From: Candidatus Bruticola sp. | GTDB lineage: Bacteria; Vulcanimicrobiota; Xenobia; Xenobiales; Xenobiaceae | Length of the DNA stretch: 64,000 nucleotides | Direction of reading: 5' to 3' | Assembly: GCA_051874695.1 (NCBI GenBank) | Contig: JBJEGC010000027.1 | Location: forward strand, 18,582-82,581 | Shown here: one piece after another, positions 13,291 through 46,440 of the stretch | Position numbering within the stretch: position 1 is the first letter of the stretch | Layout of the letters: each line of letters opens with the position of its first letter | The notes under the pieces: generated by a model | The model's input: the letters and a program-made list of their open reading frames with translations, nothing else | Databases searched by the model: none | Told to the model about the DNA's origin: nothing | Translations under genes and position numbers: made by a program

Positions 13291-13296
13291 AACAGT

Positions 13297-16038: not shown

Positions 16039-16088
16039 AGACTGCGGTAGCTTAACATTTTTATTTTTTGAAGAGGCAAAAGTAATAC

Positions 16089-18013: not shown

Positions 18014-18178
18014 GCTCTGTATTATAAGAATATCCGGAATTTTATGCCAGCTGCTTAAAGTGATCCCGGACTCGGACCTGCTATTTTTTTTCTCCTTCTT
18101 GACAAAGATTGGCGATGTTGTAGACTTTTTGGGCATTTATATCGGCCATATTGCAAAACTCAGGAAAGCGTAATAGTT

Positions 18179-24513: not shown

Positions 24514-24645
24514 TTGCTGGTAGTGTTTTCTTTGGCTTAAGTGCTTAGGTTATACTACCATCAGGCTGTTTGTGCTAAAATGCGGCAAGTTAAAGCGGAA
24601 AAGCCGTTTTTAGTTTCAGCTTTGCAAAAGAAGTGGGTTTTTTTT

Positions 24646-25827: not shown

Positions 25828-25832
25828 AAAAT

Positions 25833-31255: not shown

Positions 31256-33112
31256 TTAGTTTGGCCCTACTTTATCGGTACCGTTAACAGATTCGGTTTC
31301 ATTAATAGATTCGGTGTTGTTAACAGATTCAAGTTTAGTTTTTAAAGCTTCGATGAACTTCTTTTCCTCGGGTTGCAGTTCCAAGCTATAGGCTTTATTG
31401 AACATAGCCAGGCTCTCTGCAATATGGTTTTTTTCCAGATAAAGTTGGCCCAGCACCAAGTATGGATATCCGTCTTGTGGGGCTTCTGCCGTCAAAGAAT
31501 TTATAGCCTGCTGCAGAGAGTCACTGTGGCTGCACTTGAAGGCACCGCGCATCCATTGAATTTTCAGCAGATAGCTGTCGGGTAGTCGATTGGCCAAAAA
31601 AGCAGCCGTGCTGTCCAGTTCTTCCCAAAGACGTTGATCGCTGCAAAATTGACAAATAGCTTCCGCCATAAAGTTGGGTAGAGGAGAAGACAAACGCTTC
31701 AGCTCTTTAGCGGCTGCAGGGCTTTGCATAGTAAAAATGTTCAAGAAGGCTTTGGCTTTTATAACGGCTTGGTGCTGCTCGGGCAATTGACCGAGCAAAT
31801 AGTCGGCCTCTTGCCAATTGTATTGAAAAATTGCCTGCCACGCCCGCATCATTTGGGCTGCCGGTTCTTTCATTTGGTTTAAATCTTGTATTTCGTTTTC
31901 GGTTAAGCGGTATTGACGAATCCATAACTCAGCTTTGTCGAGATTTTGAGGTTCGGTTTGTATTGACTGTTTGATTGTGGGCCAGTCTTGAACGTTTGAG
32001 AATGATGCTGTCGGTTCGGTTGGAGTTATGTTTTTGAAAGACGAAGCCAAACCGAGGTGGCTTCGCTGTTCGACCAGGTTGCTTTGGTAGTCAAGTATTT
32101 TGTGGCTGGCCTCGGCCTGCAGTGCTTCTGAAGACCACAAAGAGCCGTTAAGTTTGGTCGGAAGCAGAGTGGAGCCATCAGCTAAAGGCTCTTCCGAGGC
32201 TTGAACTCCTTTGCTGTCGTCGCCTATATACCAAACTATCAAGTTAGGATCGGTTTTGGCAAAACAGCTTTGGCGAGTGTAAGAATAGCGTCCCTGAGCC
32301 GGGTCGATGGGAACATATCCTAAGCTAGGACAGAAAACTTCGCACCAGGAGTGGGTCGCTCGTCCTTGAGGTTCGGAGGTACTCAAAAGCAATCCGCCGC
32401 TGATTCTGACTTTGAATCCGTTTAGTTGCAGCAGTTTGGCGGTAAGTAGGGCTGCATCGGCACATTGCAGACGCCGCTCTTTCAGCATGGAAGAGAAAGA
32501 AGTTTTGGCCTTATCCGAACCGTAGCTGAAGCCGGTGCGCATAAAATCGTAAACGGATATCAGCTTATACAGAACTGACTGCTGGCTTCCTATGGCTTTA
32601 GTGGCCAGTTTCTGTAGTTCTTCTTCGGCAGGCGAACTTGCTGCCAAAACTTCTTGCCAATAATCTGTTTTCAAGGGGTGGCATTCTACCGTTTTCTTGG
32701 CTGCTTTGGCCCAGTCTGTACGGCTGAAATTGTAAACTATGGCTTCGTTTTTTAGTATGGCCTGCTGATTAACTGTAAAATTTTCTCCCGGCTGTACTGT
32801 GAGTTTATCGTAGTGGGCGTAAGAGTTGCCAAATTCGTCGCGGCTCTGTCTGTCTGGCTTAGGAGTTAAGCTGAAATCGATAACCTCTTGTCTGGAGGGT
32901 CTGTTTTGCAAAAGGGGAATTTTTAAGGAGGCTCGGCAGGGATAGGTGTGTAAGTTCTTATAGCTTACGGTTAAAGTAATGCTGCGTTTAATACTTTCGC
33001 AATCTTCTATGGCTGGCAGCTGCGGAGTTTCTGACAGGTTATAAGTCATTCGGTAACCTGCCAGGCAGATCAGGGCAATTATAACGAATGTCAAAAACAA
33101 TTTACGAATCAT
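31256..33112 (-). CDS. Membrane-anchored transglutaminase-like protein with C-terminal TPR repeats
   Basis: N-terminal TM, D.FGN, and the catalytic triad motifs QCADAA / HSWCEV / PIDP. TPR-like PYLVLGQLYL...AMFNKAYSL. Probable start ATG 33112. Confidence 0.85.
   Translation of the reverse strand: MIRKLFLTFVIIALICLAGYRMTYNLSETPQLPAIEDCESIKRSITLTVSYKNLHTYPCRASLKIPLLQNRPSRQEVIDFSLTPKPDRQSRDEFGNSYAHYDKLTVQPGENFTVNQQAILKNEAIVYNFSRTDWAKAAKKTVECHPLKTDYWQEVLAASSPAEEELQKLATKAIGSQQSVLYKLISVYDFMRTGFSYGSDKAKTSFSSMLKERRLQCADAALLTAKLLQLNGFKVRISGGLLLSTSEPQGRATHSWCEVFCPSLGYVPIDPAQGRYSYTRQSCFAKTDPNLIVWYIGDDSKGVQASEEPLADGSTLLPTKLNGSLWSSEALQAEASHKILDYQSNLVEQRSHLGLASSFKNITPTEPTASFSNVQDWPTIKQSIQTEPQNLDKAELWIRQYRLTENEIQDLNQMKEPAAQMMRAWQAIFQYNWQEADYLLGQLPEQHQAVIKAKAFLNIFTMQSPAAAKELKRLSSPLPNFMAEAICQFCSDQRLWEELDSTAAFLANRLPDSYLLKIQWMRGAFKCSHSDSLQQAINSLTAEAPQDGYPYLVLGQLYLEKNHIAESLAMFNKAYSLELQPEEKKFIEALKTKLESVNNTESINETESVNGTDKVGPN
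31275..31330. repeat. Imperfect 18-bp tandem repeat (about 3 copies) encoding ESVNNT/ESINET/ESVNGT
   Basis: TTAACAGATTCGGTTTCA / TTAATAGATTCGGTGTTG / TTAACAGATTC. Confidence 0.7.
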
Positions 33113-33237
33113 TGTGTATCTGCTTTTGTGTTTAAGGTTGCCCTTTAGTCTAGCATAAAAAACGGCAAATTTGCCAAAATTAGAGGAAGCAGAGTACTTT
33201 GAGCTGAAGGCTGGGGCTCGTTTCCGGAGGAATAATT

Positions 33238-34119
33238 GTGAAATATTATTACTATTCTGCTGTAATAGCTGCGCTTTGGGCAGTAGCAACTGTTTGTCTT
33301 CCCTCTTTTGCTGCCGATGAAGGTACGGCGGTAAGCCCCACCAGCAAGAGTCATACCGGTGTAGATTCTGTAAGTATTTCCAAAGTTACACCGCGCACTT
33401 CAGCCGATGTGCCGCAGAATTGCCAATTACCTGTAGTTCTTCTGGCCGATTATCAGTTGCAGTCATCAAGCAGCGGTTTAATTAAAACTAGAGCTTTTAT
33501 CTGGTCGCCCAAGGATAAAAGTGGCTCCGGTTATAAAAAAGGACTTCGCCCTATTTCTGCCGTTATGCAGGCAGCAGTTAAAAAGGGCAGCGGAAGCGTA
33601 AAAGTAGCTTTCCCTCCCTTGGCTATGCCCGTTAAAGCCGATCCTCAAACTCAGTTAGTTATTGTATCCAGTTTACAAAATAGTGCTCAGAAAGAAGTGG
33701 CCTGGGGAAGCACTTACAACTTTGTGCGCGGCTCTATGATGTTAGCTAAGACTGCCGATAAAAGTCCGCGTTCAGCTATTACCGTTCTAGATTTCTCTCC
33801 CAAAGTAGGCACCCTTACGGTGGGCAAAACTCAAGAGTTTACCTATAAGTTCCAGTATAGCCTCAAAGATCAAGATTACGGCTTTGTCAACTTTGAATTG
33901 AAGAACGCTATGGATAGCTTTGAAACTAGCCCCTGGTACTGTGCGGCTGTGCCAGTTCCCAAAGGAGCAGGGGTTGTAAAGTATGTGTCCAGTAAATACT
34001 TTTTTCCGTACATGTATAAGTTTTATAAGATGCGTTTAGGCGTTTTATATCGTACCGAACCCTTAGGAGGTACGGTTGACGCCTTGTTTTACGGTGACTG
34101 GCAGCTTGCTTCTAACTAA
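33238..34119 (+). CDS. Secreted hypothetical beta-rich protein
   Basis: GGAGG RBS before GTG, signal peptide (SFA-AD), 293 aa. Confidence 0.8.
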   Translation: MKYYYYSAVIAALWAVATVCLPSFAADEGTAVSPTSKSHTGVDSVSISKVTPRTSADVPQNCQLPVVLLADYQLQSSSSGLIKTRAFIWSPKDKSGSGYKKGLRPISAVMQAAVKKGSGSVKVAFPPLAMPVKADPQTQLVIVSSLQNSAQKEVAWGSTYNFVRGSMMLAKTADKSPRSAITVLDFSPKVGTLTVGKTQEFTYKFQYSLKDQDYGFVNFELKNAMDSFETSPWYCAAVPVPKGAGVVKYVSSKYFFPYMYKFYKMRLGVLYRTEPLGGTVDALFYGDWQLASN

Positions 34120-34196
34120 AATATATTGAAATTTAGCTTCGCTTTTGTTACTATGCAATCAAATATATCTTTCTTTGTATTTTGGGAGGAAAGAGC

Positions 34197-34847
34197 ATGA
34201 ACATAGCCTTCGTTTTAAATTCTGCCGTGCTTTCTGCTGCTTGGCCTTCATTCAGCGATCGTATCGAACGAAAAGGTGAGGGCAGTGCTTGTCAGCTCGA
34301 TGGCGGGATTTTGCTGAATGTCGCCGCTGAAAAAGCTCTTTCTAAAGAAGTTAAGGCTGCCGATCAGTTAAAATATTCCGATTTGGTTCTTCCTGAAACC
34401 AGTTTTCATGTTCAGTCTGTCAGTTTGGTGCCCTCTATGCGTTCCAGAGTGAGTAAGGCTTTGCGCAATTTAGTAGACGGTTTTGAGTTGCCCCTTATGA
34501 GGCGTAGCGCCGTCTGGTCGGGGTGTTTCGCTGTACTGGCTTCCGTAATTCTGAGCGGCAGTCAGCCCGTCAGTGCCGAAACTATTCCCGTGTGTTCCAA
34601 GACCGCTGTTCAGTCTGTCAGTCCTATTCAAGGGCTGTTGGCTGCTACCGAGGTAGACCCTGTCAACCATGCTTTGCGCTTAGGCAGTGCTTGGGGATCC
34701 TATGCCGATGCAGATACCAGCCATACCAATATTCCTGCTCAGCATATCAATTTGCCTAACGGACAGCACAGCAACAGTTCTCACCTTCCGTTAGGAAACA
34801 AAGGACATACTCCTCAGGTTCCTCCGGTTACCGGAGCCGGAGTATAG
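34197..34847 (+). CDS. Putative RiPP precursor 1 (HxN repeats)
   Basis: GGAGG RBS before ATG 34197. Internal hydrophobic segment ending PVSA. C-terminal HTN, HIN and HSN. Confidence 0.6.
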   Translation: MNIAFVLNSAVLSAAWPSFSDRIERKGEGSACQLDGGILLNVAAEKALSKEVKAADQLKYSDLVLPETSFHVQSVSLVPSMRSRVSKALRNLVDGFELPLMRRSAVWSGCFAVLASVILSGSQPVSAETIPVCSKTAVQSVSPIQGLLAATEVDPVNHALRLGSAWGSYADADTSHTNIPAQHINLPNGQHSNSSHLPLGNKGHTPQVPPVTGAGV

Positions 34848-34912
34848 TCAAGCAACTGCTAAAAATAATACCAGGCTAATGCAGCCGCTCCATTTTCAGA
34901 AAGGCTATTTTT

Positions 34913-35470
34913 ATGAGACGATACAGGGTTGCCTTAGAGAAGGGAACTGAACTAAATAAAGAGTCGGAATATCTTCTGGAAAACCGCAATCGAGCTGTTA
35001 AGGTCAATTTGCTTTCCCGCTCTGGCTCCGATGGTCACGGCTTCGAGCTCTCCTTAATTTCTTCCAAGTGTTCTAAGTTGGCTGCTTGTGCTGCGGCGGT
35101 AGGGGCTGTTATTGCCGGTCCCGCTTTGCCAGCTGAGGCCGCTTCCTTTACGGTTTTGCCCGGTGCTCCGGCTCAGGCAGTTTCTTTGCACGAGTGTTTT
35201 GCCTATTCGGCGCTGCGCCCGTCTGGCAAGGAAATTGTTCTCGATAGTGCCGTTAAACTTGAGGCTCCTGTAGGCTTGCAGATTGCCCAGGCCAGTTATC
35301 ACACTAACGGCTCTACCCATGTGAACCAAACTCCTGTTCCGCACACTAATAGCGCCTGGAGCAATCACAGCAACACGGGCGGCCACTCTAATGGTGACTG
35401 GGCCAACCATGGTAATACCGCTTCCGGTACCGGCCATGTAAACTTAGTTCACGGCGATTTCTTATTCTAG
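34913..35470 (+). CDS. Putative RiPP precursor 2 (His/Trp-x-Asn repeats)
   Basis: C-terminal HTN, HVN, HTN, WSN, HSN, HSN, WAN, HGN, HVN, HGD. Shares the GFELxL motif and hydrophobic segment with the upstream gene. Confidence 0.7.
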   Translation: MRRYRVALEKGTELNKESEYLLENRNRAVKVNLLSRSGSDGHGFELSLISSKCSKLAACAAAVGAVIAGPALPAEAASFTVLPGAPAQAVSLHECFAYSALRPSGKEIVLDSAVKLEAPVGLQIAQASYHTNGSTHVNQTPVPHTNSAWSNHSNTGGHSNGDWANHGNTASGTGHVNLVHGDFLF

Positions 35471-35499
35471 GTTGCCGTCCATTTTAACGTAGTTTTTCG

Positions 35500-35532
35500 G
35501 GCTCGGCTCATACGGCTGAGCCGCCTTTTTTT
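35500..35532 (+). terminator. Terminator/stabilising hairpin between the precursor genes and the SPASM gene
   Basis: GGCTCGGC-TCATACG-GCTGAGCC followed by GCC and T7. Confidence 0.65.
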
Positions 35533-35597
35533 ATGCCTCTTCAGTCGGCCTCCCGTACTTTTTTTTCGTCCGATGCAGAGGCCGCGGAGGTTTTTCT

Positions 35598-36803
35598 ATG
35601 CTCAACCTGGTTGCTCCGGTCAGCTGCAATATTATTTTGGCTTCGAAAAGCTGTACGGCTGACGCCATGCTCAGTTCTCAAGAGTGGTCTAATATTTTAG
35701 AAAAGCTTGGAGCGGCCAACGAATTCAGGATTTACGGTTTTGAAAAGTGGTTTTCTCTCAGAAAAGAAGCCGGAGAGAATGCCGACGCTATTTTGGCTTT
35801 CTGGAAACATCTGGATAATTTTAAAAAGTGTTTCCATATTTATCTGGATGCCTCTTTAGCTCCCGAGGACTTCCCCCGTCAGTTGTGGGCTTCGCTTTTA
35901 AATTGTTCCTATTTGGGGAGTGTCGTTTTCTGTTTTTCCGGTCGGCATGCATTGACTGAGGAGCCCGGTTGGCCGCTCATGGAAGAGGCTTCAGCCGCTG
36001 GTTTCGATACTGGGGTATCAGTTTTGCTGACCGATTACAGCGCTTCCTGCATCGAAGAGTTGACCAATGAATCTCTCGATGGAGGAGCCTCGCTAGTTAT
36101 TTTTGAGCGTTTGTCTCCTCAGTTTTCCGAGCAGCTCTCTGCAGACAGTCTGCGCAGCAGTGCGGAACAAATAAAAGAACTGCGCCAGCTCGGTATGGAG
36201 GCCGCCATGAGCGGTTGCTTCCCCAACTGTTTTAGCAAGGGAGACATACCTTCTTGTCTGGCAGGAACGGTGAGCTGTGCCATTACTCCCGACGGCCTGC
36301 TTCGTCCTTGTCGCTATGCCGATAGCGCGGGTTGTTTAAGTCTTTTGCAGAATAGTTTAACTGAAGCCTGGCACAGCGAGGCTTTAACTGGCTGGCGTCA
36401 GATTAGTGCCGGGAGCTGTCAGGGCTGCAACAAATGCAACTTGTGTCCAGGGGGCTGTTTGCTTTATGCTTACTCCAGCAACGGCCAAAAAACTGATCCT
36501 TTAATTTCTGAAACTGAAGCTGAAGAGACTGTTTTGCAGGAAGTTACCTTGGAAGACGAGCTCTGTCCGGTGCCTTGTTACAATATTAGGGCCGAAGAAT
36601 TCGGTTGGCTTCTGATGCGCGGATCGAGAGTTGTTCCTGTCAGTTCTAAAGCGGCTGCAGTTTTGGCCCGTTTTGACGGTAAAACTACTTTAGGACAAAT
36701 AGAAGAAGAATTTGGCTCGGGAGCTTTGTCTTTTATTTACTCTCTGTATGTGCGTGGTTTCGCCGAGTTTAAAGAGAACTTGACGCCGGGCGGGGATAGC
36801 TGA
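35598..36803 (+). CDS. Radical-SAM-like protein lacking CxxxCxxC, with SPASM domain and C-terminal PqqD/RRE-like domain
   Basis: GGAGG RBS. SPASM motifs CLAGTVSCAITPDGLLRPC and CQGCNKCNLCPGGC. C-terminal AAVLARFDGKTTLGQIEEEF...FIYSLYVRGF is PqqD-like. Confidence 0.85.
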   Translation: MLNLVAPVSCNIILASKSCTADAMLSSQEWSNILEKLGAANEFRIYGFEKWFSLRKEAGENADAILAFWKHLDNFKKCFHIYLDASLAPEDFPRQLWASLLNCSYLGSVVFCFSGRHALTEEPGWPLMEEASAAGFDTGVSVLLTDYSASCIEELTNESLDGGASLVIFERLSPQFSEQLSADSLRSSAEQIKELRQLGMEAAMSGCFPNCFSKGDIPSCLAGTVSCAITPDGLLRPCRYADSAGCLSLLQNSLTEAWHSEALTGWRQISAGSCQGCNKCNLCPGGCLLYAYSSNGQKTDPLISETEAEETVLQEVTLEDELCPVPCYNIRAEEFGWLLMRGSRVVPVSSKAAAVLARFDGKTTLGQIEEEFGSGALSFIYSLYVRGFAEFKENLTPGGDS

Positions 36804-36851
36804 CTTTACCCACATTTTATAGTTTTAACCAATCTGAACGGGGAGCTGACA

Positions 36852-37313
36852 ATGAGGCGAACTTTAAGCCGCGATTTTATGGATTTGGTGCGCCATTTTG
36901 CCTATCATGAAAAACAGGTTCATGTTTATGGCGTAAAAGAACCTCTGTACCGCTCAGAAATTCATGTAGTTTGGTTGGTAGGGGCTGAGCCCGGCCTTTA
37001 CGGTCTGAAGCTAGCTAAAAAGATTGGCATTACTAAAAGTGCAGCTTCGCAAATTCTTTCTAAGCTAGAAAAAAGGGGCATGATTTCTAGCCGTGTGGCC
37101 GCTGATAAACTGACCAAACGGGAGTATACCCTAACTGAAGAGGGGTGGAAGGTTTTTGCTTTCCATGAGGAGTTGCATCGCGAATTTGAAAAACGTTTTA
37201 ATGCATTTTTAAGGAGATATACTCCCGAGCAGCGCAAATTTTTAAAAGGCTTTGTGCAAGATCTTAATAACGTGCTGAATCTTTGGTTCACCGACGATCT
37301 ATATATACTGTAG
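36852..37313 (+). CDS. MarR family transcriptional regulator
   Basis: SEIHVV, LAKKIGITKSAASQILSKLEKRGMI and YTLTEEG winged-helix motifs. Confidence 0.9.
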   Translation: MRRTLSRDFMDLVRHFAYHEKQVHVYGVKEPLYRSEIHVVWLVGAEPGLYGLKLAKKIGITKSAASQILSKLEKRGMISSRVAADKLTKREYTLTEEGWKVFAFHEELHREFEKRFNAFLRRYTPEQRKFLKGFVQDLNNVLNLWFTDDLYIL

Positions 37314-37333
37314 TAGTTGCAAAGCATTGACTT

Positions 37334-37383
37334 AAAGCATGACTGTTTATATGGCCACCATTATAACAGCTCATGCTTTTTTT
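37334..37383 (+). terminator. Rho-independent terminator after the MarR gene
   Basis: AAAGCATGACTGTT...AACAGCTCATGC-TTTTTTT. Confidence 0.7.
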
Positions 37384-37409
37384 CTATGTTAGGAAGCTAT
37401 GTTAGGAAG
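37384..37409. repeat. Perfect 13-bp tandem duplication upstream of the pilin operon
   Basis: CTATGTTAGGAAG x2. Confidence 0.85.
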
Positions 37410-37567
37410 CCCGATTTTATAAGTATTTTAAGGTTTTGGGGAGGAAAAACTTGGAAAATATTTAAGGTTTGCGCTATTATTATATAAAGGGTGTGTGAGG
37501 GCTTGGCGGCGCTTTAGAGCTTTTTCTATTCGAGCCATGCAAAAAAAGGAGAGGAAACTATCATAAT

Positions 37568-38143
37568 ATGCGTGTTTTAACCAGGCGTTCTAGGTCTTAT
37601 GCTTTTTCGTTAGCAGAGCTTATGGTAGTTATATCTGTAGCTTCGCTGCTCATTGCCATTGTGGCGCCGGCTTGGAATAGCTACAACACCCGTCTAATGG
37701 TGTTGACCAGTGCCAACGAAGTTGTAACTGAACTGCGCAATGCTCGTGAAAACGCTTTCCGTACTGGTACTTTTACATATTTCAGATATTCGGTTAAGAG
37801 CTCCAAGAAAAAGACGTACTATGCGTATCGTAGGAACACACGTTTGTCTAGCTTGGGTTTAACTAACGGTGTGCTTAATGGTAGTGCTGGCTGGGGTGGT
37901 ACTGAGATGACCGACTCATTGATCTCTAAAGTACGCACGCTGGATCGTAGGTGCGATTTTTATAGCAGTGCCACGGCTACCTCTGCCCTCAGTAGTGCTT
38001 ACCTTGAGTTTGAGAACGATGGTTCGGTGTCTGGTAAGTCTGGTTTTACAAAATCGGGCAACGATTATGTCATCTATGTCGGTTCCGGAGGTTACTGTGT
38101 GCCGATTACAGTTTCTCCTGTTGGGCGTATAACGGTAGGTTAA
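37568..38143 (+). CDS. Type IV minor pilin, FimT/FimU/GspH-like
   Basis: Class III signal RRSRSYA|FSLAELMVV, ELRNARENA, C-terminal ITVSPVGRI. Confidence 0.8.
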   Translation: MRVLTRRSRSYAFSLAELMVVISVASLLIAIVAPAWNSYNTRLMVLTSANEVVTELRNARENAFRTGTFTYFRYSVKSSKKKTYYAYRRNTRLSSLGLTNGVLNGSAGWGGTEMTDSLISKVRTLDRRCDFYSSATATSALSSAYLEFENDGSVSGKSGFTKSGNDYVIYVGSGGYCVPITVSPVGRITVG

Positions 38144-38145
38144 GC

Positions 38146-39021
38146 ATGAACAAGAACGTTAACTTTGCTGCACAGAAGAAAAAACGGGGCGTAGCTCTTA
38201 TCTCGGCCCTCTTTGTTTTAGTTATTATGGCGACTATTTGCGGTGGTTTTGTGTCTATCATGGCCCAGAGCAGTTCTGCTTCGCGCCGGGATGCCGAAGA
38301 GAGCATTCTGCTCTATACGGCTGAAGCTGGTCTAGAGTACGCCAAATGGTGTGTAAAGCACAATTTAACTTATTATCCGGTGCGCGATCTATATACCGCT
38401 TCTTCTTCCACCGTCCCCAGAATAAAGGCGGGTGGTCTTTACAATTTTTGGGGATCGAGTGCCTATTTCGCTTTTCCCGGTGCCGACGTCTCTTCTTCCA
38501 ATGTCGCTTCAATAGATTACCTGACCCGTCGCTACGAATATCTCTACTGGACCGATTTAAGTTACGAAAATCCGAATCAGAGCGGCCACAAAAATGTTTT
38601 TGACATAAACGGAGAAAAACGTTTTTTGACAACTTTCCAAATTTCGGTTGGTGTAGTTTGGGATAACGCTAAAACTAGTTCTACTTATAACAATGCTTCC
38701 ACTGTCAATTATGTAAGGGCTGTTGGCTCCTCCAGTGAGCGCGGCTTCCCTGTAGAATTAGTTTCTACAGCTAGGTTGTGGAGTCTGAAGGACAACGGTC
38801 AGCTCTACAACGCTTTTAATAATCAGAATAGCACCTATCAATTAAATTTGGTAGAAACGTCAAAACTTATTCAAGATTTGGGAGCCGTTCAGGAGGCCGC
38901 TCGTACTTTGCACTGCACCTTTATGCATGCAGTTAATGCCGATCAATATGTAAACAGCTATCCTAAACAAGATTATTACGATGTAAAAATGTTTAAAGAC
39001 TACAGGGATTTTGCGAGATGA
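38146..39021 (+). CDS. Type IV minor pilin, PilX/GspK-like
   Basis: KKKRG|VALISAL (no Glu5) and the PilX motif LYTAEAGLEYA. Confidence 0.85.
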   Translation: MNKNVNFAAQKKKRGVALISALFVLVIMATICGGFVSIMAQSSSASRRDAEESILLYTAEAGLEYAKWCVKHNLTYYPVRDLYTASSSTVPRIKAGGLYNFWGSSAYFAFPGADVSSSNVASIDYLTRRYEYLYWTDLSYENPNQSGHKNVFDINGEKRFLTTFQISVGVVWDNAKTSSTYNNASTVNYVRAVGSSSERGFPVELVSTARLWSLKDNGQLYNAFNNQNSTYQLNLVETSKLIQDLGAVQEAARTLHCTFMHAVNADQYVNSYPKQDYYDVKMFKDYRDFAR

Positions 39022-40460
39022 TTTGGATAAACAGAAACAAGCGTAGGCGCGGCGTCACTCTTATTGAAATCCTGGTAGCCGTAGCTATTTTGGCTATAGG
39101 TTTCGGAACCGTCTTTCAGGTGTTCCCTATGGGGTACGCGGCGGCAGCTAAAGGGAAAAATCTCAATATAGCTTACGAATTGGCGTCGCGTCGTTTGGAG
39201 GAAGCTCGGGGCTATGTGCTCTTTGGTGGTAATCCCACCAACGGTAATGCACTCTCTTCGTTTGCCTATTGGGGCAGCGGGGCGCCGGCTCCCGATGGGA
39301 CCACTTATAAGGCTGTCAGTACTAATGGCAATTTTGTGGCTTTCAGCACCTCCACCGCTCCAGAGAATAAGTACTTCTACAAGATAGACTGTCTGCCGGT
39401 AGTGGACAATCGCCGCCTCTATCTGGAGTTCCCGGCCAGGCGCACCGGCACTAAATCGCCCATCCACTATAACGGCAGTTATGCTGCGGCAACTGAAGTA
39501 GCCGATACGGCCAACGCCGGGTTCGCTTCTATGTTCCGCCTTACTGTAACGGTGCGCGGTCCGCTTCCCAGTGCCGATCTGGCGGCCGATGACGAGTTTG
39601 TCAACTATAGCGAAGGAGCTGTGGAGGCCATACTTTCCACTATGGTTTGCAATGAGAACTTAGGCGATGCTCTGTTAGCTTCCAACATGGTTTTGCGCAA
39701 CGCCAGCTACGGTAGAGTAGGCGATGACGCCACCGGCGGTTTGGCTGGAGTGGCCACCTATGCCGGAACTCCCAGACGCGGTCCGACTGTATCTAATTTG
39801 AACAAAGTTCTCATTAAAGGCTTTACTCAAACTAATCCTCACCCCGAGAATTTTACAGTTCTCAACGTAGCGAACTTAACACCTACCGAATTGGCCGACA
39901 CCGGACCCAGCATATTGGATAGTGCCGGGGCCGCTGCTGTGGGGCGCAGCCGCTTCGCCAACGATGCCTACTACGATCCTAGTTACGGTAAGTACAACCC
40001 TTATTATAAAGATAAAACGGGCAGCCAGTTCTCTGCTCAAGAACTTATTGAAACTAACATTCTCGGTTTAGATAACGTAATGATTTACTCTCCGTCTTTA
40101 GCTGTAGGCGGCTCTACTTACAAGCATAGCGCTTGTTCCTGGACTGGTGGCGGCTGGATTGCCGAGAGCAATAAAATTCATCGTCTGTTGCCGCCTGGAG
40201 CCGGCGGTAACCCCAGCAGCAGTTATTGGTGCCTGGAGTTGGTTAACGATCTTATCGGTCGCGACGGCGATTCTCCCAGCAAGGCGGGAGCTGCTCTTAT
40301 GGATATGAAGTTTGATGGCGACATCTATTTGGGGAGCAGCACCGTTGTTGGCTACACGGCTGGCAGCTGCGATTCCAGCGGTAACGTTTTTGGCACCAGG
40401 GTTCGCACCTTAGTGCGCATTGAGGCCGGTAAGAACTACAACAGCGTTTTGAAGTATTAG
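39018..40460 (+). CDS. Type IV minor pilin, PilV/GspI-like, with a large C-terminal extension
   Basis: RRRG|VTLIEILVAVAIL and AYELASRRLEE; 480 aa. Confidence 0.85.
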   Translation: MIWINRNKRRRGVTLIEILVAVAILAIGFGTVFQVFPMGYAAAAKGKNLNIAYELASRRLEEARGYVLFGGNPTNGNALSSFAYWGSGAPAPDGTTYKAVSTNGNFVAFSTSTAPENKYFYKIDCLPVVDNRRLYLEFPARRTGTKSPIHYNGSYAAATEVADTANAGFASMFRLTVTVRGPLPSADLAADDEFVNYSEGAVEAILSTMVCNENLGDALLASNMVLRNASYGRVGDDATGGLAGVATYAGTPRRGPTVSNLNKVLIKGFTQTNPHPENFTVLNVANLTPTELADTGPSILDSAGAAAVGRSRFANDAYYDPSYGKYNPYYKDKTGSQFSAQELIETNILGLDNVMIYSPSLAVGGSTYKHSACSWTGGGWIAESNKIHRLLPPGAGGNPSSSYWCLELVNDLIGRDGDSPSKAGAALMDMKFDGDIYLGSSTVVGYTAGSCDSSGNVFGTRVRTLVRIEAGKNYNSVLKY

Positions 40461-40489
40461 TTAAGGGCGTAACGGCAGGGAGGCTCACT

Positions 40490-41230
40490 ATGAATATGAG
40501 GTTTAACGGTTTGCGGTCTAACGCATCGAGGCAACGTGGCTTTACTTTGGTGGAGCTGCTTATAGCCATAGCCATGTTTTCGCTCTTTACTTTAACTCTC
40601 ACGCAGCTGCTGATGGGTGGCATCGATGCCTTTAAGCGCGGTCAGGTTATTACAACTTTAAAGAGCGATGTGAAATCCTGTCTGACTCAAATTGAATCCG
40701 ATTTGCGTTTTGCCAACAGTCGGTCTTCTTTTACTGACCCTGTTTATACTTCTGGGAATCAGTCTTTGTCAGCTTCTTTCTACCGTTTTCCTGCCAGAGA
40801 TATTGACTGGACGGTTGACGGATCAACTTCCACTTATAAGGTGGATTATACTATTGATAAAGAGGGCGATACCTATGTGCTGAACTACGCTAAGAAAAGC
40901 GGTACTAAGTACAAGATGATTGATAATGTTATGCTCTCTACGGTGCCGGGCCAAGCTGGTACTTCTGGCAATTACAACAGTTACTTCCAGTGGGGACGCG
41001 TCAGTTATGGAAGCAATATTAATACCGTTCCCGAAGATGTAATGAATGTGCGCTTAACCAGCGGACGCTATTTGGGCAAGGAAATTCTGACCATGACCAT
41101 GTCTAGCGCAGTAGCTGTGCGCACTCCTGTAAGTTGTTCCAACATGAAAGCCAGCGGCGGTATCCGTACTCAGTCTGTTGAGCTTCTGCCTTTCGAAGTG
41201 AACCTGCGGGCCGGTTCTGTGTCGTTTTAA
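40490..41230 (+). CDS. Type IV minor pilin, PilW/GspJ-like
   Basis: RQRG|FTLVELLIA and LTQIESDLRFA. Confidence 0.87.
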   Translation: MNMRFNGLRSNASRQRGFTLVELLIAIAMFSLFTLTLTQLLMGGIDAFKRGQVITTLKSDVKSCLTQIESDLRFANSRSSFTDPVYTSGNQSLSASFYRFPARDIDWTVDGSTSTYKVDYTIDKEGDTYVLNYAKKSGTKYKMIDNVMLSTVPGQAGTSGNYNSYFQWGRVSYGSNINTVPEDVMNVRLTSGRYLGKEILTMTMSSAVAVRTPVSCSNMKASGGIRTQSVELLPFEVNLRAGSVSF

Positions 41231-41693: not shown

Positions 41694-42497
41694 TTAGTTT
41701 GTCTGGCGCAAACGTTTTATTATCAGGGATATGACCAGAAATGAGCAAGTAACGGCTGTTATGGAAGCGCTGGTAGGTAAATCGTAACGGACGGAAAGGG
41801 CTACTCCTGTAAAGACCGAGGCTAAAGCGGAAATTAGGGAAGTAGCACAAACCCACCGCCAGCGGTGACTCAAGCATAAGCCGGTCAGCGGAGGTACAAT
41901 CAACATGGCAAAAACCAGCAGAGCACCGGCACTGTGTATAGCGACAGCTATAGCCAAACCTACTGTAAAGTAAAATAGCCAGTTCCAAAACTTCACATTA
42001 TACCCCAGAGCCTGAGCCATCATAGGATCGAATGAAGTCAGCATAAACTGTTTAAAAAACAGTGCACTTACGATCACAATAAAGGCCAGCGAACCTGTCA
42101 TTAGGTAAATGTCGGTTGAGGTAACGGCCAGCACGTTGCCGAAGAGCAGGCTGAGCATATCACTGTCAGCGTGAGGAGACAGGGCTATAAACAGTACTGC
42201 CGCCGCTCCGGCGGCAACATAAGCGCTGCCTATAAGTCCTTCGGAAGGGAGGCCCTGCCGATGATCTTTGGCAAAAAATGTCACACCTCCCAGCATAAGA
42301 ATAACTGCCCCCAAACTGCAGGGAATGTGGAGCAGACCGCTCATAGCAATACCGGCAGTAGCCAGCTGAGCGAGGGCCACTCCTACAAAGGTTATGCGGC
42401 GCAGTACAGTCAGTACTCCCAAATAGGCAGTCATTAAAGCGGTTAAAGAGGCCGAAAGCAGGGCTAAAGAAGTAAAATCTAAATTATCAATAGACAT
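41694..42497 (-). CDS. znuB: Zn/Mn ABC transporter permease
   Basis: LGVLTVLRR, LLFGNVL, SFDPMMA and GALLVFAMLIVP (ABC-3 family). Confidence 0.9.
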   Translation of the reverse strand: MSIDNLDFTSLALLSASLTALMTAYLGVLTVLRRITFVGVALAQLATAGIAMSGLLHIPCSLGAVILMLGGVTFFAKDHRQGLPSEGLIGSAYVAAGAAAVLFIALSPHADSDMLSLLFGNVLAVTSTDIYLMTGSLAFIVIVSALFFKQFMLTSFDPMMAQALGYNVKFWNWLFYFTVGLAIAVAIHSAGALLVFAMLIVPPLTGLCLSHRWRWVCATSLISALASVFTGVALSVRYDLPTSASITAVTCSFLVISLIIKRLRQTN

Positions 42498-42536
42498 ATT
42501 TTCTCTCAGAAAAAATAAGGCAGGGCCGATTTACGA

Positions 42537-43283
42537 TCATTTATTCCAATGGATGGGGCGTCCGAAAAGTTTGCTCAAATATTGAGAAGTAAATATTTCT
42601 TTAGGTTCGCCCCAACTGACGGTGCGGCGGCCGTTGCTATCGGCGTGAAAAATGCCGACAATTTGTGCATGTTCGGCTACTATCTCCAACATGTGGGTCA
42701 CGATAACTACTGTCATGCCTTGCTGATGCAACCGGGAGACTATTTCTAAAGTATCTTGGCTGGCTCCTAAGTCCATGCCGTTAGTCGGTTCGTCCAGAAG
42801 GAGCACTTGAGGCTTAGAAACTAGGGCCCGGGCCATAAGCACTCGTTGTAACTGGCCGCCGGAAAGGGCGCTGATGTGAGCATCGGAGCGGTCGGCCAAA
42901 TTTACCTGTTCCAAAGCTTCTTTTACGGCTTGGCGGTCTTCTGAGGAAGGGCGGAAGCGATAACCCATTTGGGCGTAACGCCCCATAAGTACAGTATCAA
43001 ATACGGAAAGGGGAAACGAAGTTTCTAAAGTTTGATGCTGGGGCATGTAGCCCAATCCTTCCAAACGACGTTGTTCTTGGCTTGAACGGTCAAAGAATTT
43101 AATTTGGCCGATTACAGGTTTTAGAGCTCCCACCAATCCTTTTAATAAAGTAGATTTGCCGACGCCGTTTGAGCCTACTAAGCCTATATATTTTCCTCTT
43201 TCCAAAGAAAAATTGAGCCCTTCCAATATGGGGCGGCCGCCGTAGCCTAAACTTACTTGGCTAAATTCTGCAAATGTAGCCAT
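42537..43283 (-). CDS. znuC: Zn/Mn ABC transporter ATPase
   Basis: GSNGVGKST, GYMPQ, LSGGQLQR and LLDEPT motifs. Confidence 0.9.
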   Translation of the reverse strand: MATFAEFSQVSLGYGGRPILEGLNFSLERGKYIGLVGSNGVGKSTLLKGLVGALKPVIGQIKFFDRSSQEQRRLEGLGYMPQHQTLETSFPLSVFDTVLMGRYAQMGYRFRPSSEDRQAVKEALEQVNLADRSDAHISALSGGQLQRVLMARALVSKPQVLLLDEPTNGMDLGASQDTLEIVSRLHQQGMTVVIVTHMLEIVAEHAQIVGIFHADSNGRRTVSWGEPKEIFTSQYLSKLFGRPIHWNK

Positions 43284-43284
43284 G

Positions 43285-44217
43285 TTATTTCAAAGCCTTA
43301 GCCAGTTGATTAACGTTATACTCCATCATATCTAAGTAGGTGGAAGTATTGGGCAAGCTTCCAGGCTGAATGGGCAGTTTCAAAGCGGAAGCTCCAGATT
43401 TCTGAGCGACAGAGTTAGGCAGGTTTTCAGGGTACCAAGGCTCAAAAACTATAACTTTAACTTTGGAGCCTTTCATTAGTTCAACCAGTTCATTGAGCTG
43501 GCGGCTGGAAGGAGATACGCCGGGTTTAGGTTCAATGTTGCCGCATACTTTTAAGCCGAAATGAGCGGCAAAGTAGCTCCAAGTGCTGTGGTAAGTAACA
43601 ATATTGCTGCCGGCATAAGGTTTTAATATAGCTTTCCAACGTTTGTCAGCCTGATCTATTTTATGCCAGTAAGCGCTGTAATTTTTATCGTAAATAGCCG
43701 AACCTTCCGGATCGAGACGTTTGAAGAAGGCGGTCATAGTTCTGGCTACATGTTTTACATTGGTGGGGTTGAGAGTGTAGTGAGGATTGCCGTCAGGGTG
43801 AGCGTCGCCGCGGGAGCGATCTACTTTGCCGCTCGGTTTGTCCATAACTTTAATGCCTGCGCTGGCTTCCAAAAAGTTGGGTTGTCCGGGCATAATTTTA
43901 GGATTGCGGGCGCTGCGCAGTAAACTGGGGGCCCAGCCTATTTCCAAAGAGAGACCGGTTTCAATAAAGGCATCGGCTTGCTGTAATGCACGCAGATAGC
44001 TGGGCTTAGTTTCGACAAAATGCGGATCCTGGCCACCTTTAGCTATACAGGTAACTTTCACGCGTGAGCCGCCTATCTGGCGGGCAATGTCGGCCAAATC
44101 GGGAGTAGTTACAGCTACATTTAAAGTTTTGTCGGCTAATACAGGCTGCGAAAACCAGAAAGCCGTGCATAGAGCTATTAAGAGAACGCACCAAACAGAA
44201 GTTTTAGACATAAACAA
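43285..44217 (-). CDS. znuA: Zn/Mn ABC substrate-binding protein (cluster A-I)
   Basis: Metal-ligand motifs QDPHF, HPDGNPHY, TYHSTWSY and EPKPG. Confidence 0.9.
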   Translation of the reverse strand: MFMSKTSVWCVLLIALCTAFWFSQPVLADKTLNVAVTTPDLADIARQIGGSRVKVTCIAKGGQDPHFVETKPSYLRALQQADAFIETGLSLEIGWAPSLLRSARNPKIMPGQPNFLEASAGIKVMDKPSGKVDRSRGDAHPDGNPHYTLNPTNVKHVARTMTAFFKRLDPEGSAIYDKNYSAYWHKIDQADKRWKAILKPYAGSNIVTYHSTWSYFAAHFGLKVCGNIEPKPGVSPSSRQLNELVELMKGSKVKVIVFEPWYPENLPNSVAQKSGASALKLPIQPGSLPNTSTYLDMMEYNVNQLAKALK

Positions 44218-44249
44218 TGCTCCTTTGCTTATTTACTGCCATAATAAAA

Positions 44250-45896
44250 TTAGTACTTGTGAGCGCCATGAGGACCGATAACTACGTTCCACTGCAGCAG
44301 CAATTCATTGTAGCTGGGCTGCCAGCTGGGCGAGGTCCGGTTATACTGCAGTTTTATAGAGTTCCATTCGTTGGCGATATATTCCGCAAAGGTGGAGACG
44401 CGCTTAGTTTTGCCTTCTTCGACTAAAGGCGATTCGGCTTCTTCGTAGCGTGCGCCTAAACGGAAGTTTCTGTTGCAGCGGTAGGCCAAATAAGTGTACC
44501 AGCCGCTTAAATTTTTATCTTTGATCATATGGTTGTGCTCGTGTGCTTCTGCCTCTTCAATATCTTCAGCTAGGTCTTGCTGATAAGACTGATGAACCTG
44601 CATATACTCACTGCGCCAGACAAATTCTCGGTAGGGATCGGAAGAAGGGCTCCATTTGAGAGTGAGGTCAGCTCCGTTAAGAGAAGAAGAGCGCACGTGC
44701 TCACTATCTATAGAAGAACTGGCGTGGGAAAGTCCCAAAGTTAAAGTTGTGTCATCGTTGAGCTCAGCCATATTTTCCCAGCGGGCGCTGAACATAGGGT
44801 TATGCTTTCCTTCATTGGGGAAGAGAGCGAATTCTTCCTCGCCTTCAGCCTCTTCATCGTGGTGAGAGTGGCCTCCGGTACGGCTGGTTACTGAAGCGGA
44901 AACTTTTGAGTACCACGGAGTGGGCAGCAGCCAAGACAGCTCAACCCCTGGAGTAGACAATCCTTCATCGCCCAAAAATTCAGTATAGGGAAGAGGGCGA
45001 TCTATTTGCGGCAAAGCGTGAGTATGTGTGGAATTTAAAGCACCAAATTCAGTGCGCATCTTTCCGGCGCGCAATTGTAGACCGTGGCTCAGCCCCATAT
45101 ATTGTATAAACGCTTCCTCTAATTCTGGGCCTTCATCTTGATGGGCGGCAAAAGTGGCCTCCAAACGGGTGGAAGGATCGACCGGAGCTGAAAGCTGCAG
45201 CTCGGCTTCCTGAATAAAAAAGCTGTTTTTAGTTGAGCTGTCCTCTTGTCCGCCCAATTGGCCTCCTCCCAAGAGAACTAAAGAAATATTGGGGTTCATG
45301 TCGGGCTGCTGTCCGCTGGCTTGGGCGGTGGCTTCTTGGGGAGCTTCGGCTGCTGAAGGAGGTTCAGGCCCTAAATCTTCTGTTTCACCATCGTCAGCTT
45401 CGGCATCGGTGGCCAATTCAACAGGAGTGTCAGAGCCGTTGAGGGCGTTATTTTCAGTTTGTTTTTTCTCAATGGTATTAGCGGCCGTGTCTTGATTAAT
45501 TGAACGGCTTGTTTCAGCAGTATCGGCTACAATTTCAGTTTGGAATTGCTCATCCGCCTGCTTGGCTGTAACTTGACCGCGGCGCATTTCATCAAGTTGA
45601 GAGCGCATTTCATCTATCTGAGCTTGCTGCTTTTCGATTAATTTTGATTGAGCTTCCAGTAAACGCTGCTGTTTTTGAAAAAGTTCCTGCAGCTCGCCTA
45701 ACGATTGAGGAGAAGCTTCGGCGGTGGGAGCAGAGTCATTTGAGTTTTGTGCCTGATCTGTGGCGTTTAGAGAAGCTGTAGGGCGGCCGCCTTCGGCGGA
45801 GTCAGTCGTTCCGGCCTGAGCTGGAAGGGACAAAGGGCCTGTCAGAGCAGCACCGAGCAGACCAATACCCAAAAGGTGCAGGTGTAGTTTATGCAA
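44250..45896 (-). CDS. Putative metal-regulated outer-membrane beta-barrel (porin) with coiled coil and His/acidic loops
   Basis: Signal peptide, coiled coil, MNPNISL, EAELQLSAPVDP, FGALNSTHTHAL, HSHHDEE, HEHNH, C-terminal GPHGAHKY; AGGAGA RBS. Confidence 0.8.
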   Translation of the reverse strand: MHKLHLHLLGIGLLGAALTGPLSLPAQAGTTDSAEGGRPTASLNATDQAQNSNDSAPTAEASPQSLGELQELFQKQQRLLEAQSKLIEKQQAQIDEMRSQLDEMRRGQVTAKQADEQFQTEIVADTAETSRSINQDTAANTIEKKQTENNALNGSDTPVELATDAEADDGETEDLGPEPPSAAEAPQEATAQASGQQPDMNPNISLVLLGGGQLGGQEDSSTKNSFFIQEAELQLSAPVDPSTRLEATFAAHQDEGPELEEAFIQYMGLSHGLQLRAGKMRTEFGALNSTHTHALPQIDRPLPYTEFLGDEGLSTPGVELSWLLPTPWYSKVSASVTSRTGGHSHHDEEAEGEEEFALFPNEGKHNPMFSARWENMAELNDDTTLTLGLSHASSSIDSEHVRSSSLNGADLTLKWSPSSDPYREFVWRSEYMQVHQSYQQDLAEDIEEAEAHEHNHMIKDKNLSGWYTYLAYRCNRNFRLGARYEEAESPLVEEGKTKRVSTFAEYIANEWNSIKLQYNRTSPSWQPSYNELLLQWNVVIGPHGAHKY

Positions 45897-45901
45897 TTCG
45901 A

Positions 45902-45966
45902 TTCTCCTATTTTCGGCTTATAGAAAAAGAGTTGTATATAGTTAAATTGCAGGGCCGAAAGGAGAA
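45902..45966 (-). promoter_or_regulatory. SD-sequestering stem-loop for the porin gene
   Basis: mRNA UUCUCCUUUCGGC (45966-45954) pairs with GCCGAAA-aua-GGAGAA (45917-45902), which contains the SD. Confidence 0.7.
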
Positions 45967-46367
45967 GGGGGAGAGCGTCCTGTTTGTGAGACAGTGCCTA
46001 GACTAAGGTGGAAATAGCTATAATACTCTGCCGGTTCATGCTGCTGAGCGTTGGGGTAAGGAGGCAAAATAAGGCAATCATTTTGACCCAGCTGAGTAAT
46101 AATCTGGCAAGAAGAACAGTCGCCTTCTTGAGCGGCAGAAGCGCTTTCTAAGTGGATGAAACGCTCGGCACAGTGACAGAAAGCGGCCCGATCAAAAAAC
46201 TTAATTCGATAGCAGCGGGCCGCTTCAGAAGAAAAGATATGGCTACCGTGTGGATGCAGCCAGAGCGCCCCTTGAATCGGCACAAAGAAAAAAAGCAGCA
46301 GCAAACAGATAGTTCCCAAAGAACCGAGCTTATTTGCACTGTTATTTTGGTGCCGCGTCTGTAACAT
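45942..46367 (-). CDS. DUF2946-like leader protein (signal/TM, HxH, CxxC, C-terminal RSPP)
   Basis: Hydrophobic N-terminal segment, HPHGSH, CSSC and TGRSPPS near the C-terminus; directly upstream of the metal-uptake operon. Start at 46367 or 46388. Confidence 0.75.
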   Translation of the reverse strand: MLQTRHQNNSANKLGSLGTICLLLLFFFVPIQGALWLHPHGSHIFSSEAARCYRIKFFDRAAFCHCAERFIHLESASAAQEGDCSSCQIITQLGQNDCLILPPYPNAQQHEPAEYYSYFHLSLGTVSQTGRSPPSPFGPAI

Positions 46368-46440
46368 ATAGAATAAGTATCGAAGCAACTACAGGTAATT
46401 CTAGGATTGGCCCATTATAGTTCAGCCTTTTTTGTTCGTC

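Follow-up and report, generated by a model that had tools for sequence, protein, structure and literature searches.

Two described kinds of system come closest to the locus analysed here. The HXS antiphage system has a signal-bearing effector, HxsA, with five His-x-Ser repeats, which is matured by HxsB and HxsC, both of them radical S-adenosylmethionine (rSAM) enzymes, together with HxsD; cleavage and export of HxsA need HxsB, HxsC and HxsD, and a role as chaperones or accessory translocators was proposed by the authors for Hxs proteins (PMC13128918). His-containing Omega1-X2-X3 cyclophanes are made by rSAM/SPASM enzymes, among them HaaB (motif HAA), YhhB (HNR) and HtkB (HTK) (PMC11499958). 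In addition, the catalogued pseudo-rSAM families TIGR04347 (pseudo-SAM/SPASM) and TIGR04304 (GeoRSP SPASM) consist, like the protein described below, of rSAM/SPASM homologues without the CxxxCxxC motif. TIGR04150 and GwsS (TIGR04193) are further catalogued families of this sort.

Here we describe such a protein, referred to as the pseudo-enzyme, encoded in 64,000 nucleotides of DNA from 'Candidatus Bruticola' sp. (assembly GCA_051874695.1, contig JBJEGC010000027.1, positions 18,582 to 82,581 of the forward strand); this whole stretch is called the window. As modelled, the pseudo-enzyme is an rSAM/SPASM maturase scaffold with a C-terminal domain resembling the recognition element (RRE) of peptides that are made by the ribosome and modified after translation (RiPPs), and it has no site for the S-adenosylmethionine (SAM) cluster. 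We lean towards the view that it is a SAM-inactive, RRE-bearing Fe-S subunit that recognises two proteins with [HW]-x-N repeats and works with a live rSAM/SPASM pair encoded at an unlinked site. If so, the locus would share with HXS a His-x-(small polar) array on a secreted protein and a set of two rSAM/SPASM enzymes with an accessory protein.

Loss of the SAM-cluster motifs in a conserved scaffold

The open reading frame (ORF) of the pseudo-enzyme runs exactly from 35598 to 36803 on the + strand, starts with the N-terminus quoted in an earlier note on this DNA, and is free of frameshifts, as that note had said. Its features are the following.

35598..36803, + strand: SPASM/RRE pseudo-enzyme gene, 401 amino acids (aa), intact reading frame
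35598-36197, + strand: degenerate rSAM barrel, residues 1-200, without CxxxCxxC or GGEP
36198-36512, + strand: SPASM region, residues 201-305, with C207, C211, C220, C238, C274, C277, C283 and C287
36552-36776, + strand: RRE-like domain, residues 319-393, structural match to the PbtF RRE
35586..35590, + strand: Shine-Dalgarno sequence GGAGG, 7 nt 5' of the ATG at 35598

At the position of the CxxxCxxC motif the protein reads C-N-I-I-L-A-S-K-S-C; GGEP is missing as well, its region having been remodelled by an insertion. The GGAGG context recurs in intergenic regions of orthologues, and the Shine-Dalgarno sequence fixes the start codon; therefore, no N-terminal exon carrying the Cys triad has been missed. 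The SPASM cysteines read earlier from the letters (CFPNC; C-x6-C-x10-C; CxxCxxCxxCxGGC) are indeed present: C274-x2-C277-x5-C283-x3-C287, together with C207, C211, C220 and C238, satisfy the SPASM Cys-rich motif, and the domain probably still holds two auxiliary clusters.

Profile searches agree with this picture. Pfam finds SPASM (PF13186) alone, at residues 220-280 (E 2e-5; 25.2 bits, cut-off 21.5), with no match to Radical_SAM (PF04055) at E≤0.01. Among NCBIfam models SPASM TIGR04085 is reached with 31.2 bits (cut-off 27), and there are weak partial matches to MftC, ScmE, NirJ2 and PqqE, the PqqE equivalog score being 17.6 against a cut-off of 381. No NCBIfam equivalog is reached either by the pseudo-enzyme or by its triad-bearing orthologues (best 28-87 bits, cut-offs 265-525).

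The fold is nevertheless that of an rSAM enzyme. In the AlphaFold2 model (27-sequence alignment; predicted local distance difference test, pLDDT, 87.5; predicted template modelling score, pTM, 0.88) the rSAM partial TIM barrel is present. Foldseek places SuiB on top (E 7e-12), then PqqE, SkfB, CteB, anSME, TigE and ChlB, a triceptide synthase; in VIA-align the best matches are PqqE (Z 21.2; root mean square deviation, rmsd, 3.5 Å over 269 residues), SuiB (Z 20.6) and SkfB (Z 19.6), followed by ChlB (Z 16.8), viperin (Z 16.6) and MoaA (Z 14.8). The family profile also matches PqqE at E 1.4e-17. In the reading that we favour, the pseudo-enzyme is descended from a PqqE/SuiB-type rSAM/SPASM peptide maturase.

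In the C-terminal domain of the model, strands at 322-349 and helices at 350-385 form a winged-helix layout (a three-stranded sheet with three helices), and residues 319-393 superpose on the PbtF RRE (8t19_A) at Z 8.7, with 74 of 86 residues aligned at an rmsd of 2.2 Å. The 'PqqD-like' domain of the earlier note was thus borne out by structure; by sequence it was not.

We looked for the motif loss in a sample of 401 Vulcanimicrobiota genomes. An orthologue is present in 25 of them, at 5 partial and 20 full-length loci. Among the full-length orthologues 11 have neither the triad nor GGEP, two lack the triad and have GGEP, two combine Cx4Cx2C with GGEP, and five are canonical. The motif-less state recurs in independent assemblies of at least 11 genomes and is, therefore, no assembly error. 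Among database homologues, 12 of 14 lack both motifs (79% down to 37% identity), and two, at 34% identity, carry both. Close orthologues with CxxxCxxC, which the earlier note would have taken as a sign of recent decay or misassembly, were not found; the triad is confined to distant orthologues, at ≤34% identity.

The loss is accompanied by purifying selection. For four close pairs the Nei-Gojobori ratio of nonsynonymous to synonymous substitutions (dN/dS) is 0.09-0.13 in the barrel, 0.08-0.12 in the SPASM region and 0.03-0.06 in the C-terminal domain, about 0.03-0.13 overall, the ratios being approximate because dS (0.9-2.3) is near saturation. Many columns of the C-terminal domain are invariant in the homologue alignment. 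Judged by its residues, the pseudo-enzyme is a protein that would no longer bind the SAM-cleaving [4Fe-4S] cluster and is kept by selection; the family-wide absence of triad and GGEP fits the earlier claim that it would not cleave SAM by the canonical route.

The wider family was collected by searching its profile against 1.84 billion cluster representatives (145 proteins at E≤1e-30). The 159 family proteins fall into those with triad and GGEP (85), with neither (31), with GGEP and no triad (7), with triad and no GGEP (3), and those matching Cx4Cx2C (2, one of them an artefact); 31 are N-terminally truncated. The artefact, P0007, was rejected as a Cx4Cx2C form since the regular expression had caught an unrelated Cys pattern, and its recoding preceded the second tree. 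The SPASM cysteines, eight in all, are individually retained by 31-34 of the 35 rows without the triad and by 58-63 of the 63 rows with it. Two trees of these 98 rows were built without rows longer than 520 aa or missing either end. FastTree, with all columns, gave six changes of triad state; IQ-TREE in quick mode, with the motif-bearing first 74 profile positions removed and P0007 recoded, gave five, four of them forced by well-supported branches. By this count, at least 4-5 changes in the state of the Cys triad have taken place across the wider family.

Three other cysteines are of more local distribution: all nine of the closest cluster representatives keep Cys10 and Cys78, and seven of these keep Cys103; in the rest of the triad-less clade the three positions hold V/A/I, F/Y/P and L/Q/M. 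A search for related loci returned the same lineage of metagenome-assembled genomes and none beyond the phylum. One family member with intact rSAM and SPASM domains, P0099 (881 aa), carries a fused N-terminal STAND/AAA_16 NTPase. Such a fusion architecture is typical of defence or signalling proteins.

Candidate substrates and candidate partner enzymes

Two genes upstream of the pseudo-enzyme gene encode repeat proteins.

34913..35470, + strand: repeat protein A gene, 185 aa, nine [HW]-x-N units
34182..34847, + strand: repeat protein B gene, 221 aa as called, the conserved start being probably Met at 34197 (216-aa form); 'fam6' in 5 loci

Repeat protein A has the highest [HW]-x-N density in the genome, with 9 units within 56 aa where the genome-wide background is 0.0013 per residue. 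Its conserved leader (residues 1-50, M-R-R-Y-R-V-x-L ... F-E-L-x-L) is followed, by hydropathy, by an Ala-rich signal-like hydrophobic segment (56-74), then by A-x-A, a linker and the array; the C-terminus after the array is G-D-F-L-F, or G-D-[FY]-[ILV]-F across orthologues. Repeat protein B is laid out alike: its N-terminal segment contains E-L-P-L, the hydrophobic segment covers residues ~104-122 as numbered on the 216-aa form, and an H-x-N array of three units stands at the C-terminus. In a 15-sequence alignment of the array the columns H130/N132, H144/N146, H152/N154, H175/N177, G181, D182 and F185 are invariant and the middle residue varies. Invariant His and Asn around a variable middle residue are the signature of Omega1-X2-X3 cyclophane substrates. 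AlphaFold2 gave no readable fold for repeat protein A (pLDDT 33.5).

The pair of repeat genes stands 5' of the orthologues in several genera, including the triad-bearing ones at L021 and L024. Array size differs, with 7-31 units in triad-less lineages versus 4-5 beside triad-bearing orthologues; the largest count, 31 H-x-N units with a period of ~14 residues (P-H-T-N-T-F-T-P-H-S-N-T-A-G), is in an orthologue of repeat protein A at L011:151-1386 (G076). All 17 of the 401 genomes with repeat protein A have the SPASM orthologue as well. Within the window's genus six genomes have both repeat protein A and the SPASM orthologue, four have neither and none has one alone. Repeat proteins A and B are, judging by these features, likely substrates of the maturation system. 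The second-highest [HW]xN scorer of the window's genome (G000) is a different protein, a 1736-aa ORF at C14:29748-34958 with tandem Cys-rich repeats C-H-A-N-G-K-G-C-C-A-G-C-P-G-C.

Complex modelling with the precursor leader, as the earlier note had proposed, points to binding. Prediction of the pseudo-enzyme with residues 1-52 of repeat protein A scored 0.64, and the best of three controls 0.01; the score mark applied is reached by 58 of 80 solved complexes and by 2 of 110 mismatched pairs. The runs share at least 42% of contacts, with partner pLDDT of at least 40. Leader residues 42-50 are placed at strand 345-349 and helix 374-385, with F44-E45-L46 in predicted contact with both, which is the usual RRE mode. 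The model thus supports binding of the leader of repeat protein A by the RRE-like domain.

In the favoured reading, an enzyme able to cleave SAM would have to come from elsewhere. PF04055 is matched 33 times in the genome, and besides the pseudo-enzyme there are three rSAM proteins positive for PF13186. The search for an active paralogue proposed in the earlier note found no close one (next best match E 0.095), and it had a positive outcome by another route, through fusion proteins. In each of two long proteins, P0148 and P0149, a family member without the triad continues into a C-terminal Radical_SAM domain that is recognised by Pfam and has both CxxxCxxC and GGEP. This live domain is 38-39% identical over ~500 aa (E ~1e-113) to the product of C17:15191-16702 in the window's genome. 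That gene belongs to a tandem pair.

G000 contig C17:15191-18244 (L088:9192-12245), - strand: tandem rSAM/SPASM pair, C17-type, members 15191-16702 and 16721-18244

Both genes encode maturase-like rSAM/SPASM proteins of ~500 aa, with best NCBIfam matches, all sub-threshold, to DynA, PapB, HxsB, CbpB and QhpD; C17-type enzymes carry an N-terminal extension of ~115-125 aa.

Furthermore, the C17 type and the SPASM family occur together. Across the 401 genomes 23 have both, two the SPASM family only, two the C17 type only and 374 neither (G232, an unpublished genome, is among the 374, and no other result depends on it). Co-occurrence thus holds in 23 of the 27 genomes with either, 14 genera have both, and the two SPASM-only genomes hold the family's two most divergent orthologues. 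In the window's taxonomic family the C17 type is found in 14/14 module-bearing versus 1/5 module-less genomes; in that single module-less genome the match consists of two pieces lying at the edge of a contig. Polymorphism within the genus and the fusions are independent kinds of evidence. Together with the leader-binding model, fusions and co-occurrence support the suggestion of the earlier note that the protein may present substrate to an active rSAM enzyme encoded elsewhere.

C17-type genes form a tandem pair in all 10 inspected loci. In three loci one member lacks CxxxCxxC (L101:4136-5530 in G007, L102:5584-7074 in G014 and L103:3478-4848 in G020); the formation of pseudo-enzymes, therefore, recurs in a second component of the system. 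In G035 (contig C59) a C17-type gene adjoins one for a 274-aa protein (L098:6756-7580) with nine [HW]xN units (WSN four times, WKN, HSN three times, HDN) and Gly/Ala-rich hydrophobic segments; that cluster has three such enzymes and a B12-rSAM. In the window's genome the pair is preceded by a J-domain (DnaJ-like) gene, L088:12393-13106, and a B12-binding rSAM gene (HpnJ/ApyD-like) lies ~5 kb away, with relatives near the pair in 3 of 10 loci.

The island around the gene

The neighbouring features in the window are listed below.

31256..33289, - strand: transglutaminase-core protein, membrane-anchored, with a helical-repeat tail; PF01841 at E 1.2e-9, Cys/His/Asp triad in the translation
33238..34119, + strand: 'fam4', secreted, 293 aa, N-terminal signal peptide by hydropathy; first operon gene, in 6 loci
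35500..35522, + strand: terminator-like hairpin by consensus match, 9-bp stem with 6 GC pairs, followed by T7; it separates the pseudo-enzyme gene from repeat gene A
36852..37313, + strand: MarR-family regulator, at this position only in the window's genus
37568-38143, 38146-39021, 39018-40460 and 40490-41230, + strand: four type IV pilin-like (minor pseudopilin) genes

The gene order in the window and in three other loci is 'fam4', repeat B, repeat A, pseudo-enzyme, MarR (in this genus only) and the four pilin-like genes. For 'fam4' there is no Pfam, NCBIfam or PADLOC match, and a structure-atlas search gave unnamed clusters only. PF07963 (N_methyl) is found in three of the four pilin-like genes and TIGR02532 in the last two, with sub-threshold matches to PilV, GspJ and Verru_Chthon cassette D; the ORF 38146-39021 has no Pfam or NCBIfam match. 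A PADLOC 2.0 (2023) scan of the operon, with a library older than the HXS paper, found no defence family apart from generic winged helix-turn-helix matches for MarR.

The repeat genes, the pseudo-enzyme gene, the transglutaminase-like gene and the four pseudopilin genes make up an island of ~10 kb that is gained or lost as a unit. The pilin-like genes are syntenic with the module in four loci and nearby in three more, and they are absent along with it in G003, G030, G042 and G054. The transglutaminase-core gene is found in 13/14 module-bearing and 0/5 module-less genomes of the window's family; in genus g4 it shares a contig with the module at a distance of ~9-10 kb, and G030 and G042 lack it along with the rest of the island. 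G030 has none of the ~10 kb block 31256-41230, and just 123 nt separate the genes that flank it. Between these flanking genes G042 has nothing of the island but MarR (L086:1683-2141, 78% identical), which suggests either two deletions around MarR or a MarR gene older than the island.

Of 10 orthologous intergenic regions of more than 20 nt, 6 have strong hairpins at the same spot as that of 35500-35522; possibly, the hairpin is an attenuator that sets the ratio of substrate to enzyme. Heptosyltransferase genes in the window suggest a lipopolysaccharide outer membrane, hence a periplasm.

Several other neighbours may be recorded. Directly downstream of the island lies a ZnuABC-type operon (ZnuA, ATPase, ABC-3 permease) with two unassigned genes (41697-46388, - strand); the adjacency is seen only within the genus and would be relevant if the His arrays bind metal. 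Genes for an IscS-like cysteine desulfurase and a NifU-like scaffold (24541-26210), ~10 kb upstream, probably serve housekeeping Fe-S assembly. In G005 four paralogous genes of ~440-470 aa (L040:5236-7873, 12394-13728 and 14117-15538), whose products start with M-K-V-x-L-I-S-P-R-G, surround the triad-bearing orthologue and the pseudopilin genes.

Explanations weighed and comparison with known systems

The reading that we favour, a SAM-inactive subunit serving a live pair, rests on the observed motif loss, fold, purifying selection, synteny, co-occurrence and fusion proteins. The pairing of enzyme with substrate, the chemistry, the export and the role of the island for the cell would then be as follows. 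The RRE-like domain would bind the cytoplasmic leader (M-R-R-Y-R-V and F-E-L motifs) of both repeat proteins, while the barrel and the SPASM domain would hold or present the repeat array. If the chemistry is analogous to that of triceptides, dynobactin and HXS, the His/Trp-x-Asn units would be what the C17 live pair modifies. The internal signal-like segment would then carry the repeat domain across the membrane, beyond which the transglutaminase-like protein, the 'fam4' protein and the four pseudopilins may act on it.

A number of points weigh against this reading. Both the SAM inactivity and the modification of the repeats are predictions from sequence. The C17-type pair adjoins the module in none of 10 inspected loci, being on another contig or, in G005, 66 kb off, and the N-terminal extension of the C17-type enzymes might itself be a recognition domain. 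The co-occurrence in 23 of 27 genomes overstates its statistical weight because related genomes are not independent; it extends also to triad-bearing orthologues, and a takeover of catalysis by the pair is therefore not implied. Both cut-offs, E≤1e-46 for orthologues of the pseudo-enzyme (next match 5.5e-21) and E 1e-40 for the C17 type, were picked after the score gaps had been seen. As to the C-terminal domain, PF05402 was matched at E≤1 by none of 19 family members, PqqD TIGR03859 gave 12.8 bits (E 0.083) on the pseudo-enzyme against a cut-off of 46, and the domain profile found no significant match among PDB sequences (best E 0.52). Solved RRE-leader complexes exist, so the success of the complex prediction may reflect that likeness, and the fold of the leader in the complex is uncertain (partner pLDDT 41-46). 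Finally, repeat proteins of 185-411 aa with a signal-like segment are proteins, not classical RiPP peptides.

Some of the same evidence could be read otherwise. The pseudo-enzyme could be a stand-alone escort or export chaperone which, with no rSAM modification, binds the leader and keeps the repeat protein competent for export or gates its N-terminal processing, the H-x-N arrays working unmodified, e.g. in binding metal or nucleic acid. The modelled leader binding, the larger arrays of triad-less lineages (7-31 units, as compared with 4-5) and the ZnuABC transporter next to the island in the window's genus would all suit such a chaperone, as would the roles proposed for Hxs proteins with respect to their repeat effector (PMC13128918). 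However, it leaves unexplained the co-occurrence with the live tandem pair, the fusion proteins and the retention of all eight auxiliary-cluster cysteines, and we regard it as unlikely. That last feature, with the purifying selection on the barrel (dN/dS 0.09-0.13), could instead indicate that the protein is still an enzyme, acting on the repeat proteins by non-radical or non-canonical redox chemistry at its auxiliary clusters or at a new site made of Cys10, Cys78 and Cys103, which the closest cluster representatives share. Yet these three cysteines are missing from the remaining triad-less clade and, therefore, cannot explain the retention of the family; the SAM-binding GGEP is gone, the literature search found no precedent, and we know of none for non-canonical catalysis by a triad-less rSAM/SPASM protein. 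To residual catalysis we give still less credence than to a pure chaperone.

The identity of the live enzyme could also be different. The anSME/DynA-like rSAM-SPASM enzyme of C20:57330-58436 (G000; L062:1498-2604) has as its best NCBIfam scores, neither of them reaching the cut-off, 244 bits with anaerobic sulfatase maturase and 218 bits with DynA. The genome, 96.6% complete, has no PF00884 sulfatase for it to act on, the enzyme is present in most module-bearing genomes of the class, and it could be the one that modifies the [HW]xN units. It is, though, also present in module-less genomes (all four of the same genus, 4/5 of g6), and its identity to the fused live domain is just 29%, lower than the 38-39% of the C17 enzyme. 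Its gene is convergent with a conserved one for a ~450-aa lipoprotein in four of the five loci inspected, and this lipoprotein may be its real substrate. Being confounded with lineage as well, the C20 enzyme was downgraded as a dedicated partner, and we think its involvement very improbable. Nothing more than the missing motifs would speak for a decaying gene or an assembly artefact without function; the intact frame, the same state throughout the family and in at least 11 independent assemblies, dN/dS of ~0.1 or lower and the invariant columns of the C-terminal domain refute this explanation, which can be practically dismissed.

Starting again from the SAM-inactive subunit with its live pair, one could speculate further, and with more doubt than conviction, that the island is a counterpart, 'HXN', to the phage-entry barrier of HXS, an envelope system whose RRE-bearing member has turned repeatedly (at least 4-5 times) into a pure adaptor. 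Just as tentatively, an rSAM/SPASM machine of three members might cross-link the arrays in the cytoplasm, after which the transglutaminase-like enzyme and the pseudopilins would handle them outside. If this were true, the indispensable job of the RRE-bearing subunit would be escort of the substrate, not catalysis, and the family would offer a natural series for testing the chaperone role proposed for Hxs proteins.

With orthologues that are live, half-decayed or dead sharing one gene context, with named candidate substrates and a live partner pair suggested by fusion and co-occurrence, and with the whole island present or absent among species of one gut genus, the case is unusually tractable. 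The role of a dead rSAM/SPASM protein, be it adaptor, chaperone or redox partner, becomes directly testable, and the locus points towards secreted, rSAM-matured repeat proteins of a new kind in a lineage of the gut and rumen that is uncultured (Vulcanimicrobiota/Xenobia, 'Candidatus Bruticola'). A literature search, with supplementary files outside its range, found neither a description of an H-x-N repeat system nor an experimental study of a SPASM pseudo-enzyme.

Among known systems, the catalogued pseudo-rSAM proteins are thought to work beside a live rSAM enzyme; the partner is adjacent there and unlinked here. The pseudo-enzyme matches neither TIGR04347 nor TIGR04304 at E≤1, and its triad-bearing orthologues reach 42-58 bits (cut-off 525) and 37 bits (cut-off 300), respectively. 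Here, triad-bearing orthologues survive in the same synteny, and the decay is therefore traceable stepwise. PqqE, SuiB and SkfB are the top structural matches of the pseudo-enzyme; it differs from them in having neither triad nor GGEP and in the position of the RRE, which is C-terminal here and N-terminal or a separate protein there. Lasso-peptide systems split B1 (the RRE) from B2 (a leader protease of transglutaminase fold). An RRE protein and a transglutaminase-core protein encoded with a substrate may be likened to B1 and B2 by analogy only; unlike B2, the transglutaminase-core protein of the island has a membrane anchor, and its orientation is probably outward.

With triceptide synthases, and with cross-linking maturases of the DynA/DarE type, the likeness lies in the rSAM/SPASM scaffold, ChlB being among the structural matches, and, in the candidate substrates, in repeated aromatic-x-X3 units with conserved positions 1 and 3, nine in A and three in B. 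The pseudo-enzyme differs in having no SAM cluster; it scores 12.9 bits with YhhB NF041707 (cut-off 445) and does not match XyeB TIGR04496 or GrrM/OscB TIGR04261 at E≤1. The candidate substrates, known here from genes alone, differ as well, being signal-bearing proteins of 185-411 aa.

The nearest counterpart is HXS. The likeness would extend to the logic of cytoplasmic maturation, N-terminal processing and export, which has been demonstrated for HXS and is proposed here from genes. No component of the island or of the C17 pair reaches an Hxs equivalog cut-off (TIGR03976-03979): the C17 pair scores 121-132 bits with HxsB (cut-off 370), and HxsC is not matched by the pseudo-enzyme at E≤1 and is matched by its triad-bearing orthologues with 43-65 bits (cut-off 268). 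The units are H/W-x-N instead of H-x-S, and there are two repeat proteins, each with a leader of ~50-100 aa in front of its internal signal-like segment; a search of the proteins here gave no peptidoglycan-binding domain. The accessory protein is HxsD in HXS and a full-length dead rSAM/SPASM protein with an RRE here, and the island adds a transglutaminase-like gene and four pseudopilins. Thus the system resembles HXS in logic and differs from it in every component.

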